A stretch of 64,000 bases of DNA from Escherichia coli (GCF_044324875.1 NZ_CP172185.1); one strand, 5' to 3'. Shown: positions 23,355 through 29,980, numbered from the stretch's first letter. A program made the numbers and translations. Notes: generated by a model not told the origin, from the letters alone.

Positions 23355-24980
23355 TTACACACACACTCCCCCCGTCGCCCGCAGCAATAAATCATTCTGG
23401 ATCTGCTCTGACAACCGTACGCCGCCGCGCGTATCTAACATCACCTGACACCACGCCTGCGCCATTGGCGGAGAGGCATATTTCAACATTTGCGCACCGC
23501 AGCCCAGCAGGAATAGCTGATGAGTAATCTCTCGCCCCAGTTCTTCAGCAGGCTTACGCAGCTGCTGCTGTAAACGACGAACCGCGCGATCAAAATAGCG
23601 ATCCTGCCCTTTCACTTCCACAAATGCTTCCGACAATAAGTCGTATACACCCGCTTGCTTATTGAGAACGCGCAGCACATCCAGGCACATAATATTGCCG
23701 GAACCTTCCCAAATACTGTTTACCGGCATCTCCCGGTAAAGCCGCGGCAGCTCGCTCTCCTCGCAATAACCAATGCCGCCCAGCACCTCCATCGCTTCGG
23801 CCACAAACGGCATACCTCGTTTGCAGATCACAAATTTTGCCGCAGGCGTAAATAAACGCGCCCACAGGGCTTCTTTGGCATCGGCACGCCGGTCCCACGC
23901 TCGCGCAAGACGAAACAGCAACGCCGTTTGCCCTTCAAGCTGAAGTGCCATGCGACTTAAGACATGACGCATAAGGGGCTGTTGGATCAATGGATTACCA
24001 AAAACATGGCGTTGATGTGCATGATAAATCGCCAGCGAAAATGCACGGCGCATCATGGCATGGCTACCCAGGGCGCAATCAAAACGCGTCATCCCCCCCA
24101 TTTTCAGGATCAGACGAATTCCTTCCCCTTCCTGCCCCAACAACCAGCCAATGGCATCCTGAAACTCCACTTCGCAGCTGGCGTTAGAGCGATTACCCAG
24201 CTTATCTTTCAGCCGCTCGAGGCGAATCGCGTTGCGTTGCCCGTCAGGCAAAAAGCGCGGCACAAAAAAGCAGGATAAACCGCCCGTAGTCTGCGCCAGC
24301 ACCAGATGCGCATCGCTTTGCGGCACCGAGAAAAACCATTTATGCCCCACCAGCCGATAAGAGCCATCTTCCAGACGCTCTGCGCGGGTGGTGTTGCTCA
24401 TGACATCGGAACCGCCCTGCTTTTCCGTCATTCCCATGCCAATCAACAAACCGCGTTTTTGCCCACCTGGCAATAAGTGAGAATCGTAGCGATCGCTCAA
24501 CAGCGGCGTGGTCCAGTCCTGAAACGGCGCGGGTAACATCTGTAACAGCAATGGCGTGGCGGCAAAGGTCATCGTTATCGGACATAACGACCCTGCCTCA
24601 ACCTGTGCGTGCAACATAAAACGCGCCGCGCGCGCCACAAATGCGCCGGAGCGAGCGTCTTCTTCCCAGGCAAGATTGTGCACCCGATTGGTACATAGCG
24701 CCTGCATCAGCAAGTGCCAGGCGGGGTGAAAACGCACATCGTCCAGATGGCGTCCTTGCGCATCGTAGCGCAATAATTCAGGCGGATTCACATTCGCCAG
24801 CCGCCCCAGTTCAAGGGATTCAGCCGTCCCTAACTGCTGACCAATACTAGCTAGAAAATCGCTATCCCAGCCAGCACCTTCACGCGTTACCGCTTCGCAG
24901 AGCGCGCCATCAGACAGGTATAAGTTGCTGTTATTTAATGGTATAGGTTGATTAAAAACGGTGTGAGTTTGCCAGTGCAC
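23355..24980 (-). CDS. aidB: Adaptive-response acyl-CoA-dehydrogenase-like protein AidB
   Basis: Track ORF is 547 aa from an upstream ATG; K-12 AidB is 541 aa as I recall, which fits a GTG start at the Val of ...TVHWQTHTVFNQ. Confidence 0.9.
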   Translation of the reverse strand: MHWQTHTVFNQPIPLNNSNLYLSDGALCEAVTREGAGWDSDFLASIGQQLGTAESLELGRLANVNPPELLRYDAQGRHLDDVRFHPAWHLLMQALCTNRVHNLAWEEDARSGAFVARAARFMLHAQVEAGSLCPITMTFAATPLLLQMLPAPFQDWTTPLLSDRYDSHLLPGGQKRGLLIGMGMTEKQGGSDVMSNTTRAERLEDGSYRLVGHKWFFSVPQSDAHLVLAQTTGGLSCFFVPRFLPDGQRNAIRLERLKDKLGNRSNASCEVEFQDAIGWLLGQEGEGIRLILKMGGMTRFDCALGSHAMMRRAFSLAIYHAHQRHVFGNPLIQQPLMRHVLSRMALQLEGQTALLFRLARAWDRRADAKEALWARLFTPAAKFVICKRGMPFVAEAMEVLGGIGYCEESELPRLYREMPVNSIWEGSGNIMCLDVLRVLNKQAGVYDLLSEAFVEVKGQDRYFDRAVRRLQQQLRKPAEELGREITHQLFLLGCGAQMLKYASPPMAQAWCQVMLDTRGGVRLSEQIQNDLLLRATGGVCV

Positions 24981-25063
24981 TGTGTCTCCCTCCATCAATG
25001 GCAGTCACCCTTAGTATGGTCACTGCCATGGATTCCTGACAGAAAGAGATTGCTAAAACATTC

Positions 25064-26227
25064 TTATCCAGCAATGTAATGCGGAACGAAACGTGAGGTG
25101 TCTTTGGTGATCAGCGTGTTATCTTCACGGATCCCCATTCCGCACGCTTCATCATCGACAATCCAGCTACCGATGAGTGTGTAGCTATCGCCAAATCGCG
25201 GCAGAGGTTGAAGCGCCTGGTAGATCATCGGTTCATCGGCGTAATCACCATCAGCGTGGTCAACGACGTTATTCTGACCGTCGAAAATGGTGACGTTTCC
25301 GCCTTCGCGTGAGTAGATCGGTTTACGCACATAGCTTTCGCCAGCGGCAATCTGCGGTTTTTCGCCCTCAAACCAGGATGCAAGAAGGTTAGGATGACCA
25401 GGAAAGAAACGCCAAAGCAGCGGCATTAACCCTTTGTTGCTCAAGATACTTTTCCATAACGGCTCCACCCATTGCTCGCGACGCTTGCGCAGCAGCGGAC
25501 CGTTATCGTCACGCATCATCCACTCTAGCGGATACAGCTTAAATGCACGCTGGATGACATTATCATCAAGATCGGTCAGTACACCGCCGACGCCCAAACC
25601 GAGATCTTCAATGTAGATAAACCGCGACTCCTGCCCAGCCTGCTGGGCGCAGTCCTGCAAGTACAGCACGGTAGTCCTGTCTTCATCGGTGTCCTGACAG
25701 CAGCAAAAATAAAACGGTTCCCGACTGTAAAGCTCACTAAAGCGCGAAATCAGGCGTTCCTGAATGGCATTGTACTGATCGGCGTCACGTGGAATAACGC
25801 CGCTGCGCCGGGCATCTTCCAGCCACAGCCACTGGAAATAAGCCGATTCATACAACGAGGTTGGCGTATCGGCGTTGTACTCCAGCAGCTTCACCGGCGC
25901 ATTGCCACACCAGGCAAAATCCATCCGGCCATACAGCGAAGGATCGCGTGCGCGCCAGCTTTCGGCGATCACATCCCAGTACAACGGCGGGATCGCCAGT
26001 TGCGTCAGGATCTCTTCGTCTTTAACCGCGCGATCTACCACCTCAAGGCACATCTGATGCAGTTCCGCAGTCGGTTTTTCGATCTGCTCTTCAATCTGGC
26101 GCAGGGTAAAGCGGTAAGCCCGACTCTCATCCCAATAGATTTCATTGTCGATGATATGAAAGTCGAAACCGTTGTCAGCGGCGATCTGGTCCAGATCCCA
26201 CCGTACAGGAACGTTGTGTCTCAGCAT
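25064..26227 (-). CDS. yjfC: Glutathionylspermidine-synthase-like ATP-grasp protein YjfC
   Basis: Track ORF 25064..26242; start at MLRHNVPVRWDLDQIAADNG gives 387 aa. Confidence 0.85.
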   Translation of the reverse strand: MLRHNVPVRWDLDQIAADNGFDFHIIDNEIYWDESRAYRFTLRQIEEQIEKPTAELHQMCLEVVDRAVKDEEILTQLAIPPLYWDVIAESWRARDPSLYGRMDFAWCGNAPVKLLEYNADTPTSLYESAYFQWLWLEDARRSGVIPRDADQYNAIQERLISRFSELYSREPFYFCCCQDTDEDRTTVLYLQDCAQQAGQESRFIYIEDLGLGVGGVLTDLDDNVIQRAFKLYPLEWMMRDDNGPLLRKRREQWVEPLWKSILSNKGLMPLLWRFFPGHPNLLASWFEGEKPQIAAGESYVRKPIYSREGGNVTIFDGQNNVVDHADGDYADEPMIYQALQPLPRFGDSYTLIGSWIVDDEACGMGIREDNTLITKDTSRFVPHYIAG

Positions 26228-26229
26228 GA

Positions 26230-26868
26230 TTAGCCTCCCCAATGCCCACGGGCGCTGGAAGAACGACCATAGCCGCCGCGAGAAACGGTTGACGCTTTTT
26301 TGGTGGTAAAGCCGCCCGAAGAATAGGACTCTTTTTTGCCAGAACCGGAGCGCCAGGAGTAATCACCGGAAGTGTTGCGCCAGACGGGGCGCGAAGCAAA
26401 AGAGGAACCGCCGCTGTTATACACAAACTGCTCGTCGCGATCTTTACGAATAACCCGGCTTAACAAAAATCCAGAAACAACCGGGATCCAACTCTGTTCA
26501 ACGTTGTCGTAGTAACAATTTTCATACTTAGACTGACAATTCTGCTGAGTCATATTCTTTGGAACATCGGCATAAAACGCCGCTTTGGCGTTGTTCCAGC
26601 CATGAGCACAGATATCTGAATTATTACCGTCATCAATACAATCCTGCACAGTCGAGTAAAACGTTCCGTCGCCGTCGTTATCGACATCGCCACTATCGCC
26701 ACAACCTTTCAATACGAAAAAAGCGGCACCGCCCATTAGCGCCAACGTTAAGTATTTTTGTGCGTAACGATTGCGACGCGGTTCAAAAGGATTATTCGGT
26801 CTACCAATGCGACTGATCGCTCCGTGACCAATTTTACTGTTATTTCTTGATTTGCGTTTTCTGGCCAT
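26230..26868 (-). CDS. yjfM: DUF1190-family protein YjfM
   Basis: 212 aa, basic N-terminus, TM segment, Gly/Ser-rich C-terminus. Confidence 0.8.
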   Translation of the reverse strand: MARKRKSRNNSKIGHGAISRIGRPNNPFEPRRNRYAQKYLTLALMGGAAFFVLKGCGDSGDVDNDGDGTFYSTVQDCIDDGNNSDICAHGWNNAKAAFYADVPKNMTQQNCQSKYENCYYDNVEQSWIPVVSGFLLSRVIRKDRDEQFVYNSGGSSFASRPVWRNTSGDYSWRSGSGKKESYSSGGFTTKKASTVSRGGYGRSSSARGHWGG

Positions 26869-26877
26869 GATCGTCCA

Positions 26878-27276
26878 TTACCATGTCATACAAGCTGCGT
26901 TAAAAATACCGCCAGCCAGTGCGGCGGTTCCCATAAACATTCCTGCTGCGGTATTGTGATTAATAATTTTTTCGCTTAATGCGGGCATATAAAGTCTGAC
27001 GCCAGCAAAAACGAGTAACTGAATCACCAGTGCGATCCCGCCCCAGGCGAAATAGTCTGGAATACTCACCGCATTGATTGCCGCACTGGATAAGGGGATC
27101 ACGTAACCCAACAATGTACCGCTGAACGCCAGTGACGCCGCGGTATTATTGTTTTTGATTAACTGCCATTCGTTGTGCGGTGTAATTTTTGAATAGATAA
27201 ACAGAAAAATAATCACCATAGCCACGCCAATAAAAAAATAGGCACTAAAGGCAAGAAGAGAATCCAGTATATGCAT
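26878..27276 (-). CDS. yjfL: DUF350-family inner membrane protein YjfL
   Basis: Track ORF 26878..27357; start at MHILDSLLAFSAYFFIG gives 132 aa; four predicted TM helices. Confidence 0.8.
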   Translation of the reverse strand: MHILDSLLAFSAYFFIGVAMVIIFLFIYSKITPHNEWQLIKNNNTAASLAFSGTLLGYVIPLSSAAINAVSIPDYFAWGGIALVIQLLVFAGVRLYMPALSEKIINHNTAAGMFMGTAALAGGIFNAACMTW

Positions 27277-27293
27277 TGTAAACGTCCTTGTAA

Positions 27294-27953
27294 TTAACCA
27301 ATAATATGAAGTGATGTCAGCGGGATATCGACACCCAACGCGCGCGAAAATAACCACTCTGGCTCGCCGAGATCGTTAAAAGATTCCTCACCATTTAGCA
27401 GCAAATATTCGTAAGTATCTTCGGTTACTTGCCGTTGGTAGCCCATGGTAAAATTATGTACTTCCCATTTGGCATGGTTTTGATTTTCTACTTTTTCCAG
27501 CATGTAGACGGGTTCGATATTTCCCGGTTCTTCGCTGTTAAAAAATCGCTGCCAGCGTTTTTCCTGCCAGTTTAAGGTCATTGCCCCCATCGCTTTGGCA
27601 TTGATCGTCTCGCGCCAGTGACTCTCTTTACTGATACCGTAGCTCTCTTCATAGACAAAGAGCTTGATATCATCAATGTTATCAATATTTTCGCCGCCGG
27701 TGGTATTGATTTGCAGAAACTCATCGCCTGAAGTGTAGTAGCGGAAAATCTGGCTACCGCCGCCCAGATCGATGTGACTGACAGCGGCTACCGTAAATTC
27801 CTCACCCGGCAGCGCAATCAGCAATTCATCTTCCAGCAAACGAAACGCTAACGTGTCGAGCGTAAAGCCACTATTGAGATGAAGTCCCAGCGGACCGCGA
27901 GCGATAGCAGGCTTATTATCCTTGCCAAACAGACGCTGGAAAAAACCAGACAT
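27294..27953 (-). CDS. yjfK: DUF2491-family protein YjfK
   Basis: 219 aa, MSGFFQRLFGKDNKPAIARGPLGLHLN... Confidence 0.8.
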   Translation of the reverse strand: MSGFFQRLFGKDNKPAIARGPLGLHLNSGFTLDTLAFRLLEDELLIALPGEEFTVAAVSHIDLGGGSQIFRYYTSGDEFLQINTTGGENIDNIDDIKLFVYEESYGISKESHWRETINAKAMGAMTLNWQEKRWQRFFNSEEPGNIEPVYMLEKVENQNHAKWEVHNFTMGYQRQVTEDTYEYLLLNGEESFNDLGEPEWLFSRALGVDIPLTSLHIIG

Positions 27954-28003
27954 ATTTTATCCTTAAAATAGTTGCCAGCCTTGCAGTGAGGCTGGCAAAA
28001 AAA

Positions 28004-28702
28004 TTACTCGCCCTGTTGGCGTTGCAGTCTTGCTAATACATCCTGGGCGCTACTTTTATTGCTACCGCCTATTCCGGCTTCCGCCAGCTTTTCATCAAGA
28101 TCGCGACCGTCTGCGACTTTTTCCAACTGTGCAGCAGCATCCAGGCGAGCCTGACGTTCGGCCTGACGCGTTTGCAGGCGTTTTAAGGATTCTGCCGCTG
28201 TCGAAACGCTGGAAGATGCGCCAACGGTAGAGGTCGTTACAGCCTGTTGTGCACGCTGCATGGCTTCAGTAGCTTTAACGACTTCCATTTGCTGCTCAAA
28301 CTGAGCGATACGCTGCGCTGTCGCTGTAACTGCTTTTTCCACGCCATCACGAGAGACTTCCAGATTCGACAACACTTGCTCTTCAGCGGTAATGAGATTC
28401 TCAAGGCGCGCGATTTCTTCAGCAACTTCGTTAATCAACGACGGATTAACGTTCTTGCTTAACGCTTCCAGCGCACGGGCTTCCAGACTGGCTTTGCGCT
28501 CACGTAAATCTTTCAGCTTATCGTGACTTAATTTCACCCGCGCCAGCAGATCAACGCGAGATTTTCCGGCTTTATCGAGTTCAGCTTTAGCGTCACGAAT
28601 ATGCTGTTCCAGCATGCGCACGCCCTGGGTTTCTTCAATGGATTCTTCCGCCTGAGAGATAAACGATTTCCCCAGCGTAAATAAACTTTTTAAAATTCCC
28701 AT
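28004..28702 (-). CDS. yjfJ: PspA/IM30-family protein YjfJ
   Basis: 232 aa, coiled-coil-rich, MGILKSLFTLGKSFISQAEESIEETQ... Confidence 0.85.
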   Translation of the reverse strand: MGILKSLFTLGKSFISQAEESIEETQGVRMLEQHIRDAKAELDKAGKSRVDLLARVKLSHDKLKDLRERKASLEARALEALSKNVNPSLINEVAEEIARLENLITAEEQVLSNLEVSRDGVEKAVTATAQRIAQFEQQMEVVKATEAMQRAQQAVTTSTVGASSSVSTAAESLKRLQTRQAERQARLDAAAQLEKVADGRDLDEKLAEAGIGGSNKSSAQDVLARLQRQQGE

Positions 28703-28720
28703 AAATACCCGTCCTTGTAA

Positions 28721-29122
28721 TTAGTGTGAATATTCTTCTGTAATTTCAGCCAGATCCAATGCGTTATCTACCAGCGAGGTTATCTCAAGCAGGATATCTT
28801 CAAGAGAAGATTTAAGCGATAACGCACCGAAAACAATGTAATACTCTTCATGTTGCACGCTGGAGATCCCTACCGATGACAACGGCATCATCTTCTGATT
28901 TCTTAATAAGAAGGTATTAAATTCATCTGGATTGCTGATACTACTTACCGGACAAATAAAGGTTTCGATAATCATTTGGCGGGAAGTAAATAGAATATTG
29001 ATTTGCAAATCGCCATAATCATTCATTTTAATAATTAATGCGTTCTCGCCATTTGTTACATCAATATTTTGTTCAGGTACAGTTTGCAGCGCCGTCGCCA
29101 GCGCCAACGGATTCCATGTCAT
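28721..29122 (-). CDS. yjfI: DUF2170-family protein YjfI
   Basis: 133 aa ORF at the head of the yjfIJKLM cluster. Confidence 0.8.
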   Translation of the reverse strand: MTWNPLALATALQTVPEQNIDVTNGENALIIKMNDYGDLQINILFTSRQMIIETFICPVSSISNPDEFNTFLLRNQKMMPLSSVGISSVQHEEYYIVFGALSLKSSLEDILLEITSLVDNALDLAEITEEYSH

Positions 29123-29248
29123 ATATTATTCCATATAAATTAAGTTTAAATATTAATAAAATGAATATTTGCAGTACGTAATTATCTTACCAGCTATAGA
29201 CAAAAAAAAACCATCCAAATCTGGATGGCTTTTCAAAATTCAGAGGAA

Positions 29249-29980
29249 CTAGCTGCGCTGTCGCACCGCTTCAAATAAGCAAATCCCTGTCGCCACAGAA
29301 ACGTTCAGGGAAGAAACGCTTCCTGCCATTGGGATGCTGATCAACTCGTCGCAATGTTCACGAGTCAGGCGACGCATACCTTCACCTTCCGCGCCCATCA
29401 CCAGTGCCAGCCGTCCGGTCATTTTGCTCTGATAAAGTGTATGATCCGCCTCACCTGCCGTACCGACGATCCAGATATTCTCTTCCTGCAACATACGCAT
29501 GGTGCGCGCAAGGTTAGTCACCCGAATCAGCGGAACGCTTTCTGCCGCGCCGCAGGCTACTTTTTTCGCCGTGGCGTTGAGCTGTGCGGAGCGATCTTTC
29601 GGCACAATCACCGCATGAACACCTGCGGCGTCCGCGCTACGCAGGCACGCGCCGAGGTTGTGCGGATCGGTTACGCCGTCGAGGATCAGCAGGAACGGTT
29701 GATCGAGCGAAGCGATCAGATCCGGCAGATCGTTTTCCTGATACTGACGTCCTGGCTTCACACGGGCAATAATGCCCTGATGCACGGCACCGTCGCTTTT
29801 CTCGTCGAGATACTGACGGTTCGCCAACTGGATAACCACGCCCTGGGACTCAAGGGCGTGAATCAGCGGTAACAGACGTTTATCTTCACGGCCTTTTAAA
29901 ATAAAGACTTCCTGAAAACGTTCAGGGGCGCGCTCCAGCAGGGCCTGCACTGCGTGGATGCCGTAAATCATTTCGCTCAT
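29249..29980 (-). CDS. rlmB: 23S rRNA (guanosine2251-2'-O)-methyltransferase RlmB
   Basis: 243 aa SpoU/TrmH-family sequence, [25 protein letters not shown]... Confidence 0.93.

Follow-up and report, generated by a model that had tools for sequence, protein, structure and literature searches.

Why should a membrane-repair protein of the PspA type be encoded side by side with an ATP-grasp ligase, a small membrane protein and three poorly characterized partners? The question is raised by the yjfIJKLMC cluster of Escherichia coli, which lies on the minus strand at positions 25064-29122 of the stretch analysed here (GCF_044324875.1 NZ_CP172185.1; the whole stretch of 64,000 nucleotides is referred to as the window). 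Practically all E. coli genomes carry the cluster, as do many Proteobacteria, and it encodes a second PspA-type membrane-repair protein. The comparison of gene neighbourhoods points to yjfL-yjfM-yjfC, and not the PspA gene, as the core of the cluster, and we consider it about evenly balanced whether the whole is a composite envelope-maintenance module in which yjfI-yjfJ-yjfK is the accessory part. A more tentative proposal, made by analogy and on balance doubtful, is that YjfC and its paralogue YgiC would perform C-terminal polyamination of their co-translated DUF1190 partners.

The cluster and its core

The six genes are as follows, in the direction of transcription, with protein lengths in amino acids (aa).

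28721-29122, minus strand: yjfI, 133 aa; Pfam DUF2170 (5e-44, 149.8 bits); CesT/Tir-like chaperone-fold protein related to Pseudomonas aeruginosa BacA
28004-28702, minus strand: yjfJ, 232 aa; Pfam PspA_IM30 (5e-58); PspA/IM30 (bacterial ESCRT-III) family
27294-27953, minus strand: yjfK, 219 aa; Pfam DUF2491 (4e-71); soluble, mostly beta protein whose N-terminus has the conserved motif MFxRLFG[KR]K
26878-27276, minus strand: yjfL, 132 aa; Pfam DUF350 (1e-33); four-transmembrane-helix inner-membrane protein
26230-26868, minus strand: yjfM, 212 aa; Pfam DUF1190 (7e-18); envelope protein
25064-26227, minus strand: yjfC, 387 aa; Pfam GSP_synth (8e-149); ATP-grasp carboxylate-amine ligase (peptide-spermidine ligase)

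All six open reading frames (ORFs) are intact, every Pfam match is far over its gathering threshold, and the intergenic gaps from yjfI to yjfC are 18, 50, 17, 9 and 2 base pairs (bp). The RefSeq annotation gives the identical six genes, flanked by rlmB and aidB. An earlier note on this DNA had described six closely packed genes on one strand, without saying which, and assigned a domain family to each; the layout is confirmed, and Pfam returns exactly the named families for all six proteins. The finding is correct but already known, as the region is the E. coli yjfIJKLMC cluster, which has been described before. Among 5426 complete E. coli genomes, 5425 have a match to the 5.2-kb region, and in 5326 the match covers 80% of it or more. 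The interval 24500-29700 has identity of at least 99% in only 8 of the 5425 genomes, most of them falling at 95-99%; the window therefore represents a somewhat uncommon E. coli lineage.

The YjfC family comprises 2996 representatives at E <= 1e-3. Gene order was compared in one genome per species, using the best 80 loci with a YjfC relative from other genomes, and the locus counts below are over 81 loci. These belong mostly to Alphaproteobacteria, with some Gammaproteobacteria, one Desulfovibrio and one member of the Neisseriaceae. The genes were labelled by iterated hidden Markov models (HMMs) seeded from the six window proteins, on crude ORF calls in which the longest ORF was taken and in which shadow ORFs appear in genomes of high guanine-cytosine content. 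A DUF1190 or DUF1190-like gene is present in 76/81 loci and a DUF350 gene in 58/81; yjfI, yjfJ and yjfK were each detected in 21/81. With each gene denoted by its last letter, the commonest arrangements are L-C (20 loci), L-M-C (15) and M-C (14), and in the 20 L-C loci the HMM missed a short DUF1190-like gene between L and C. The gap between M and C has a median of ~0 bp. The earlier note had centred the cluster on the PspA-like gene; these counts shift the centre, and identify yjfL-yjfM-yjfC as the widespread core, with I-J and K as an accessory set. This redirects which genes are to be studied jointly, the ygiBC paralogues included, and holds even without the substrate claim discussed below.

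In 17 loci, with contigs that extend over the entire cluster, the full set of six genes is present, and these six-gene loci display at least five distinct orders. The order I-J-K-L-M-C is seen in E. coli and Rudaea, and a divergent order, M<L<K< >I>J>C, in 13 loci (Sphingomonas, Caulobacter, Brevundimonas, Pseudovibrio and Acidiferrobacteraceae). The others are J<I< >K>L>M>C in Rhizobium, J<I< >K>M>L>C in Jiella and I>J>C>K>L>M in Novispirillum. An independent look-up added L>M>C>I>J>K as a sixth order; here a potassium (K+) channel gene with Ion_trans_2 and TrkA_N domains comes after K (L091:1639-6911). C is thus attached either to an I-J unit or to a K-L-M unit, a division that matches the boundary marked by a hairpin between yjfJ and yjfK in E. 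coli. The same families were obtained in the contexts examined when the gene calls were independent and the Pfam labels precomputed, and a reverse start from four DUF1190 proteins found a GSP_synth gene alongside in 4/4. The neighbourhood comparison argues that the six genes form a real module, because their co-occurrence survives repeated rearrangement of the gene order. The functional module that the earlier note had proposed is borne out to this extent, with recurrence in several orders in both Alpha- and Gammaproteobacteria.

Fusions of the ATP-grasp domain to DUF1190 or DUF350 were sought as well; the longer homologues proved to be chimeras, over-called starts or unrelated extensions. Two unusual contexts of YjfC relatives were encountered. 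In one (L089:660-1817), a YjfC-like ATP-grasp gene (~36% identity) has neither DUF1190 nor DUF350 nor PspA as a neighbour; the contig carries small genes that lack annotation, which may be a phage or mobile-element context. In the other (L088:4038-7308), two GSP_synth paralogues in tandem come after the gene of a long DUF1190 protein, which has 312 aa and the C-terminus ...GGRGGGA. Comparison of the cluster proteins with the PADLOC models identified no defence family, and gave only weak coiled-coil noise for YjfJ (E >= 5e-4).

The YjfC ligase and the YjfM tail

In the PDB, the window protein matches the crystallised YjfC (7UK6, E 6.5e-272 over residues 1-387). Crystal structures are available for YjfC (7UK6/7UK7) and for the paralogue YgiC (7UK8/7UKA), and the K-12 RefSeq product name of both is 'peptide--spermidine ligase'. 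Peptide-spermidine ligase activity of YjfC/YgiC was reported by Pederick et al. 2023, as far as that study is cited in PMC11762307. Glutathionylspermidine synthetase activity is stated to be absent from both enzymes in the papers that cite Sui 2012 and Pederick 2023 (PMC11762307, PMC12506659, PMC12568646). The earlier note had called the biochemistry of the cluster unresolved, which is outdated as regards the structure and the in vitro activity of YjfC in view of 7UK6/7UK7 and the activity as cited; the operon type too has been described (PMC11237479).

Residues R101, D103, E116 and N118 are invariant in 42 members of the YjfC family and align to GRMD/EYNAD of 2IO7. YjfC retains the GRxD...EYNAD catalytic core common to glutathionylspermidine synthetase (GspS) and trypanothione synthetase. 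Directly after EYNAD, GspS has SASC whereas the YjfC family has TPTS. The SASC residues of GspS play a role in glutathione binding.

YjfM begins with a basic stretch and a membrane anchor. An acidic domain with four cysteines comes next, then a conserved hydrophobic segment, and the protein closes with a basic tail whose end is SRGGYGRSSSARGHWGG-COOH. The ending ...SRGG[YF]GRSSSARG[HS]WGG is shared by all enterobacterial orthologues, at identities as low as 44%, and YgiB, which is 23% identical to YjfM, ends ...TRGGFG...SSRSMGG. An alignment of 17 diverse DUF1190 members reveals that C77, C87, C111, C118, P129, R197, G199 and G201 are invariant. P129 is situated in the hydrophobic segment, which includes W-I-P-V-V-S-G-F, within a W/F-x-P pattern, the R-G-G-[FYW]-G motif is invariant, and the C-terminus follows the pattern R-[S/G]-x-G-G. 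All DUF1190 proteins examined, from YjfM and YgiB to distant relatives, share the RGG[FY]G motif, and their tails finish with Gly-Gly or with other small residues. In the loci, 60/81 motif-selected ORFs end GG (a few of the ORFs being spurious); the other endings are GS, SS, AG, SG, SA and AT in genuine DUF1190 proteins, and SN, TL, GL and RR in likely spurious ones. An independent profile search returned 118/120 sequences ending GG and two ending SG, in a sample that is mostly Brevundimonas. Among the labelled I, J, K, L and C proteins the GG ending is found in 0/202.

The yjfC start lies 2 bp past the yjfM stop, and the Shine-Dalgarno sequence GGAGG is contained in the last two Gly codons of yjfM. 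An explanation in which these codons are kept solely as the yjfC ribosome-binding site was considered and rejected: where M is opposite in strand to C, and hence not upstream of it, 14/14 M genes end GG. The family also has a marked charge dipole. The region from the anchor cysteine to the hydrophobic segment has a median net charge of -7 and the tail after it +8, and this pattern is observed in 121/122 sequences. The family-wide C-terminal motif and the charge dipole of DUF1190 proteins are new here.

The location of the tail relative to the membrane bears on whether a cytoplasmic enzyme could reach it. In YjfM the lipobox is an atypical L-K-G-C preceded by a strongly basic extension of 38 residues; K or R at -2 is seen in other Enterobacterales as well. 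A helical-hairpin topology with both ends of YjfM in the cytoplasm would fit the basic extension and the unusual lipobox. The second membrane span would possibly be provided by the hydrophobic segment.

We also note that many public YjfM variants carry frameshifts at or after the GKK codons, in an A6 run within ...GGCAAAAAAGAG... (~26330-26345). In the frameshifted proteins (e.g. P0004 and P0011) the RGGYG...WGG tail is lost and reading continues into the yjfC start. Either genuine alleles that have lost the tail at a homopolymer or errors of assembly may lie behind them.

The accessory proteins and transcription

YjfJ is a full-length member of its family, matching Pfam PF04012 with 196.7 bits (cut-off 33.9) over residues 2-232, N-terminal helix included. 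A profile of 13 YjfJ orthologues matches Vipp1/PspA structures over residues 1-229 (E 1e-13); a PDB sequence search with the single YjfJ or the single YjfK sequence gave no match, so that YjfJ is linked to these structures only via the family profile. A flexible linker leads to a conserved helix at the C-terminus, ...DVLARL. YjfI matches the 'DUF2170 family protein' structure 8Q8O (BacA) with E 6e-17, and the NCBIfam BacA model at 7e-27, below the cut-off of that model; the CesT-like assignment of DUF2170/YjfI comes from PMC11237479 and PMC10948618. No signal sequence was seen at the N-terminus of YjfI in the translation or of YjfK in the alignment, both by inspection and not by a prediction program. 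The model of YjfL (predicted local distance difference test score 94.8) has two repeats of helix, short helix and helix; E36, W78 and Q86 are invariant, and the model matches generic helical bundles only. Plasmid activation of yjfIJKL has been reported to give >1.21-fold faster growth at 42 C (PMC11472167).

The signals that bear on the expression of the six genes are listed below.

29205-29234, minus strand: rlmB intrinsic terminator, a 13-bp stem and then a nine-T run at 29202-29210 (terminator scan)
29128-29156, minus strand: sigma-70 promoter TTAATA-17-TGGAAT in the rlmB-yjfI spacer (sequence from PMC3946193, located by eye)
28710-28723, minus strand: exact 14-nucleotide TAATTACAAGGACG, copy 2, with the yjfI stop codon and the yjfJ ribosome-binding site
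27972-27998, minus strand: GC-rich hairpin, its T tail weak, within the 50 bp that separate yjfJ from yjfK (terminator scan)
27283-27296, minus strand: exact 14-nucleotide TAATTACAAGGACG, copy 1, with the yjfK stop codon and the yjfL ribosome-binding site
26908-26928, minus strand: terminator-like hairpin and T run inside the 3' end of yjfL, just before the stop codon (terminator scan)

The rlmB terminator, which is the upstream edge of the cluster, folds as RNA with -16.9 kcal/mol (z -3.2), and its sequence and spacing are the same in K-12. TTAATA-17-TGGAAT was published as a constitutive sigma-70 promoter (PMC3946193); its -10 element ends 5 nucleotides ahead of the yjfI ATG, and it was not picked up by a consensus promoter scan of the window. 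No sigma-54 promoter was seen upstream of yjfI on reading the sequence; one has been suggested for the Pseudomonas bac cluster. The publication on the sigma-70 promoter lists the transcription unit nsrR-rnr-rlmB-yjfIJ (PMC3946193). The yjfJ-yjfK hairpin (-17.1 kcal/mol, z -2.2) coincides with the end of this ...yjfIJ unit, and may act as a partial terminator or as an attenuator. Strains evolved under heat upregulate the YjfJ iModulon, which consists of yjfIJKL and excludes yjfMC (PMC12492005). The hairpin at the 3' end of yjfL might account for the missing yjfMC; it could also be a chance match, because the scan gave 10 sites against 5.4 +/- 2.0 expected. The earlier note had implied co-transcription of the six genes. 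The two literature units, nsrR-rnr-rlmB-yjfIJ and the yjfIJKL iModulon without yjfMC, speak against one simple unit, together with the yjfJ-yjfK hairpin. From these signals and the literature we infer a graded or segmented transcription of the six genes in E. coli and not one simple operon.

The activation of yjfIJKL was ascribed to a 'promoter' mutation, a 1-nucleotide deletion 80 bp upstream of yjfI (PMC12492005). Its position is that of the last T of the T9 run in the rlmB terminator, 29202-29210. Because the deletion lands on this run, its effect could involve read-through from rnr-rlmB or a homopolymer slip, and not a classical promoter change.

The two exact copies of TAATTACAAGGACG have a chance expectation estimated at ~0.04 in 4.4 kb, and the pair may be a shared translational-coupling element. 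At the other end of the cluster, the spacer of 83 bp between yjfC and aidB, which are on the same strand (24981-25063), gave no terminator-like site in the terminator scan, and an Rfam search of 24500-29500 gave no RNA family. An imperfect inverted repeat, ATGGCAGTGACC...GGTGACTGCCAT, is present in this spacer just upstream of the aidB start.

Proposed function, alternatives and related systems

In the composite module envisaged here, YjfC is the cytoplasmic ATP-grasp enzyme, which uses ATP to activate the carboxylate of a peptide for ligation to spermidine, an in vitro activity taken from the literature. YjfM is the membrane-anchored DUF1190 protein, and the four-helix DUF350 protein YjfL would be the membrane partner. 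YjfC would amidate the Gly-Gly end of YjfM (...R-[S/G]-x-G-G-COOH) with spermidine, and YgiC likewise that of YgiB. This choice of substrate is modelled on GspS, where glutathione reacts through the carboxylate of its C-terminal glycine, and we regard it as rather improbable when taken by itself. Access to the tail would be provided if the hydrophobic segment returns the basic tail to the cytoplasm, or if ligation precedes export. The polyamine-tipped basic tail at the inner membrane would then work with the DUF350 protein and, where present, with the YjfJ system, in which YjfJ, a PspA/ESCRT-III-type protein, would bind and stabilise the inner membrane with YjfI as its CesT-like chaperone. YjfK is a soluble beta protein whose gene travels with yjfL and yjfM. 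In heat and similar stress, both parts together may shield the inner membrane or reshape it, through a molecular link that is conjectural. If the Gly-Gly end of YjfM/YgiB were indeed the substrate, a new bacterial post-translational modification would be at hand, in which polyamines are covalently linked to envelope proteins, and the physiological substrate of YjfC/YgiC would be identified.

Several observations weigh against this proposal. The locus sample is biased and partly redundant, with many Bradyrhizobium. Most DUF1190 members have a canonical lipobox and a lipoprotein-type signal, by which the default location of the tail is the periplasm, apart from the ATP-dependent enzyme; the hydrophobic segment is only marginal for a membrane helix, with a mean Kyte-Doolittle value of ~0.95 over 19 residues. 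Approximately one fifth of DUF1190 tails end GS, SS, AG or similar and not GG, and the RGGFG motif with the tail could be a binding element and not a substrate. YjfJ was reported not to form large oligomers (PMC5333519). The two parts of the module are not strictly co-regulated in E. coli, because yjfMC is absent from the yjfIJKL iModulon (PMC12492005).

The main rival, developed after Ravi et al. 2024, is that YjfC makes or consumes a soluble peptide-polyamine conjugate akin to glutathionylspermidine, that YjfJ and the membrane proteins sense how much polyamine is present or react to it, and that DUF1190 is a periplasmic metal-binding lipoprotein whose Gly-Gly tail is a binding or anchoring element. 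It is the interpretation proposed in PMC11237479, and it draws strength from the closest characterised relatives of YjfC, which use a small tripeptide, from the lipobox and the four invariant cysteines, which suit a periplasmic domain, and from the ligand-gated K+ channel of some related clusters. However, it leaves unexplained why a small-residue C-terminus is kept over great distances amid a low-complexity tail, and why M and C are so tightly coupled in translation; the reported lack of glutathionylspermidine synthetase activity in YjfC and YgiC, in so far as the citing papers convey it, does not favour it either. We consider this explanation possible, if on the unlikely side.

A second rival was derived by Rychel et al. 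2025 from structure predictions (PMC12492005): YjfJ would assemble into large ring pores and YjfL into hexameric channels, YjfK would be a primitive beta-barrel porin of the outer membrane and YjfI a periplasmic lipoprotein, and at high temperature their overexpression would make the membrane more viscous and more crowded with protein. The gain in heat growth on overexpression is real (PMC11472167), but inspection detects no signal peptide at the N-termini of YjfK or YjfI, YjfI is homologous to the soluble BacA/CesT-like fold, and the conserved linkage with yjfM and yjfC is disregarded, all of which makes these assignments very improbable in our judgement. It would be still harder to maintain that yjfIJ and yjfKLMC are two unrelated adjacent operons with no common function. 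Separate transcription units were reported (PMC3946193), a hairpin lies between yjfJ and yjfK, and the I-J pair also occurs with quite different partners, e.g. in the P. aeruginosa bac cluster; yet 21 loci from distant lineages combine I, J and K with L, M and C, the arrangements numbering at least six, and in 13 of those 21 loci C comes directly after J with K-L-M divergent. Such a chance adjacency we regard as scarcely credible.

The chemistry has its nearest parallel in GspS/Gss and trypanothione synthetase, whose ATP-grasp synthetase domain is homologous to YjfC (E 1e-33 to 1e-71). GspS joins a C-terminal glycine carboxylate to spermidine, as is envisaged for YjfC. In contrast to GspS, YjfC consists of the synthetase domain only and lacks the N-terminal amidase domain, and its glutathionylspermidine synthetase activity is given as absent in the papers citing the enzymology. 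The ygiB-ygiC pair, downstream of tolC, is a paralogous pair of DUF1190 and ATP-grasp genes with the same order, M then C, and the same tight spacing as yjfM-yjfC. Like YjfM, YgiB has four cysteines, the RGGFG motif and a Gly-Gly end, and the same activity as that of YjfC is ascribed to YgiC in the citing literature. The two loci differ in that ygiB-ygiC has no DUF350, DUF2491, DUF2170 or PspA genes, and in that YgiB has the canonical lipobox LAGC, whereas YjfM has LKGC and the basic N-terminal extension of 38 residues.

With the phage-shock system pspF-pspABCDE the cluster shares a full-length PspA/IM30 member with its N-terminal helix. No pspB, pspC or pspF lies near yjfJ, the annotated neighbours being rlmB, rnr, nsrR and aidB, and the partner of YjfJ is instead a DUF2170 chaperone-like protein. 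The same DUF2170-PspA pair is present in the bac cluster of P. aeruginosa (BacA/BacB, PA3732-PA3729), for which the BacA structure 8Q8O was reported; this cluster is without DUF350, DUF1190 and ATP-grasp genes by its authors' description (PMC10948618).

The closest match is an operon type described by Ravi et al. 2024, in which a CesT/Tir-like protein (YjfI, DUF2170) and PspA are combined with a GspS-related ATP-grasp protein, DUF350, a DUF1190 lipoprotein, DUF2491 and sometimes a K+ channel (PMC11237479). This 'third group' of CesT/Tir-PspA operons holds the same six families, with YjfI and YjfJ as type examples, and the cluster in the window is a member of it. The K+ channel of the group, which has an intracellular ligand-sensing domain, is absent from the window and present in the L>M>C>I>J>K locus, and it appears to be an optional component.

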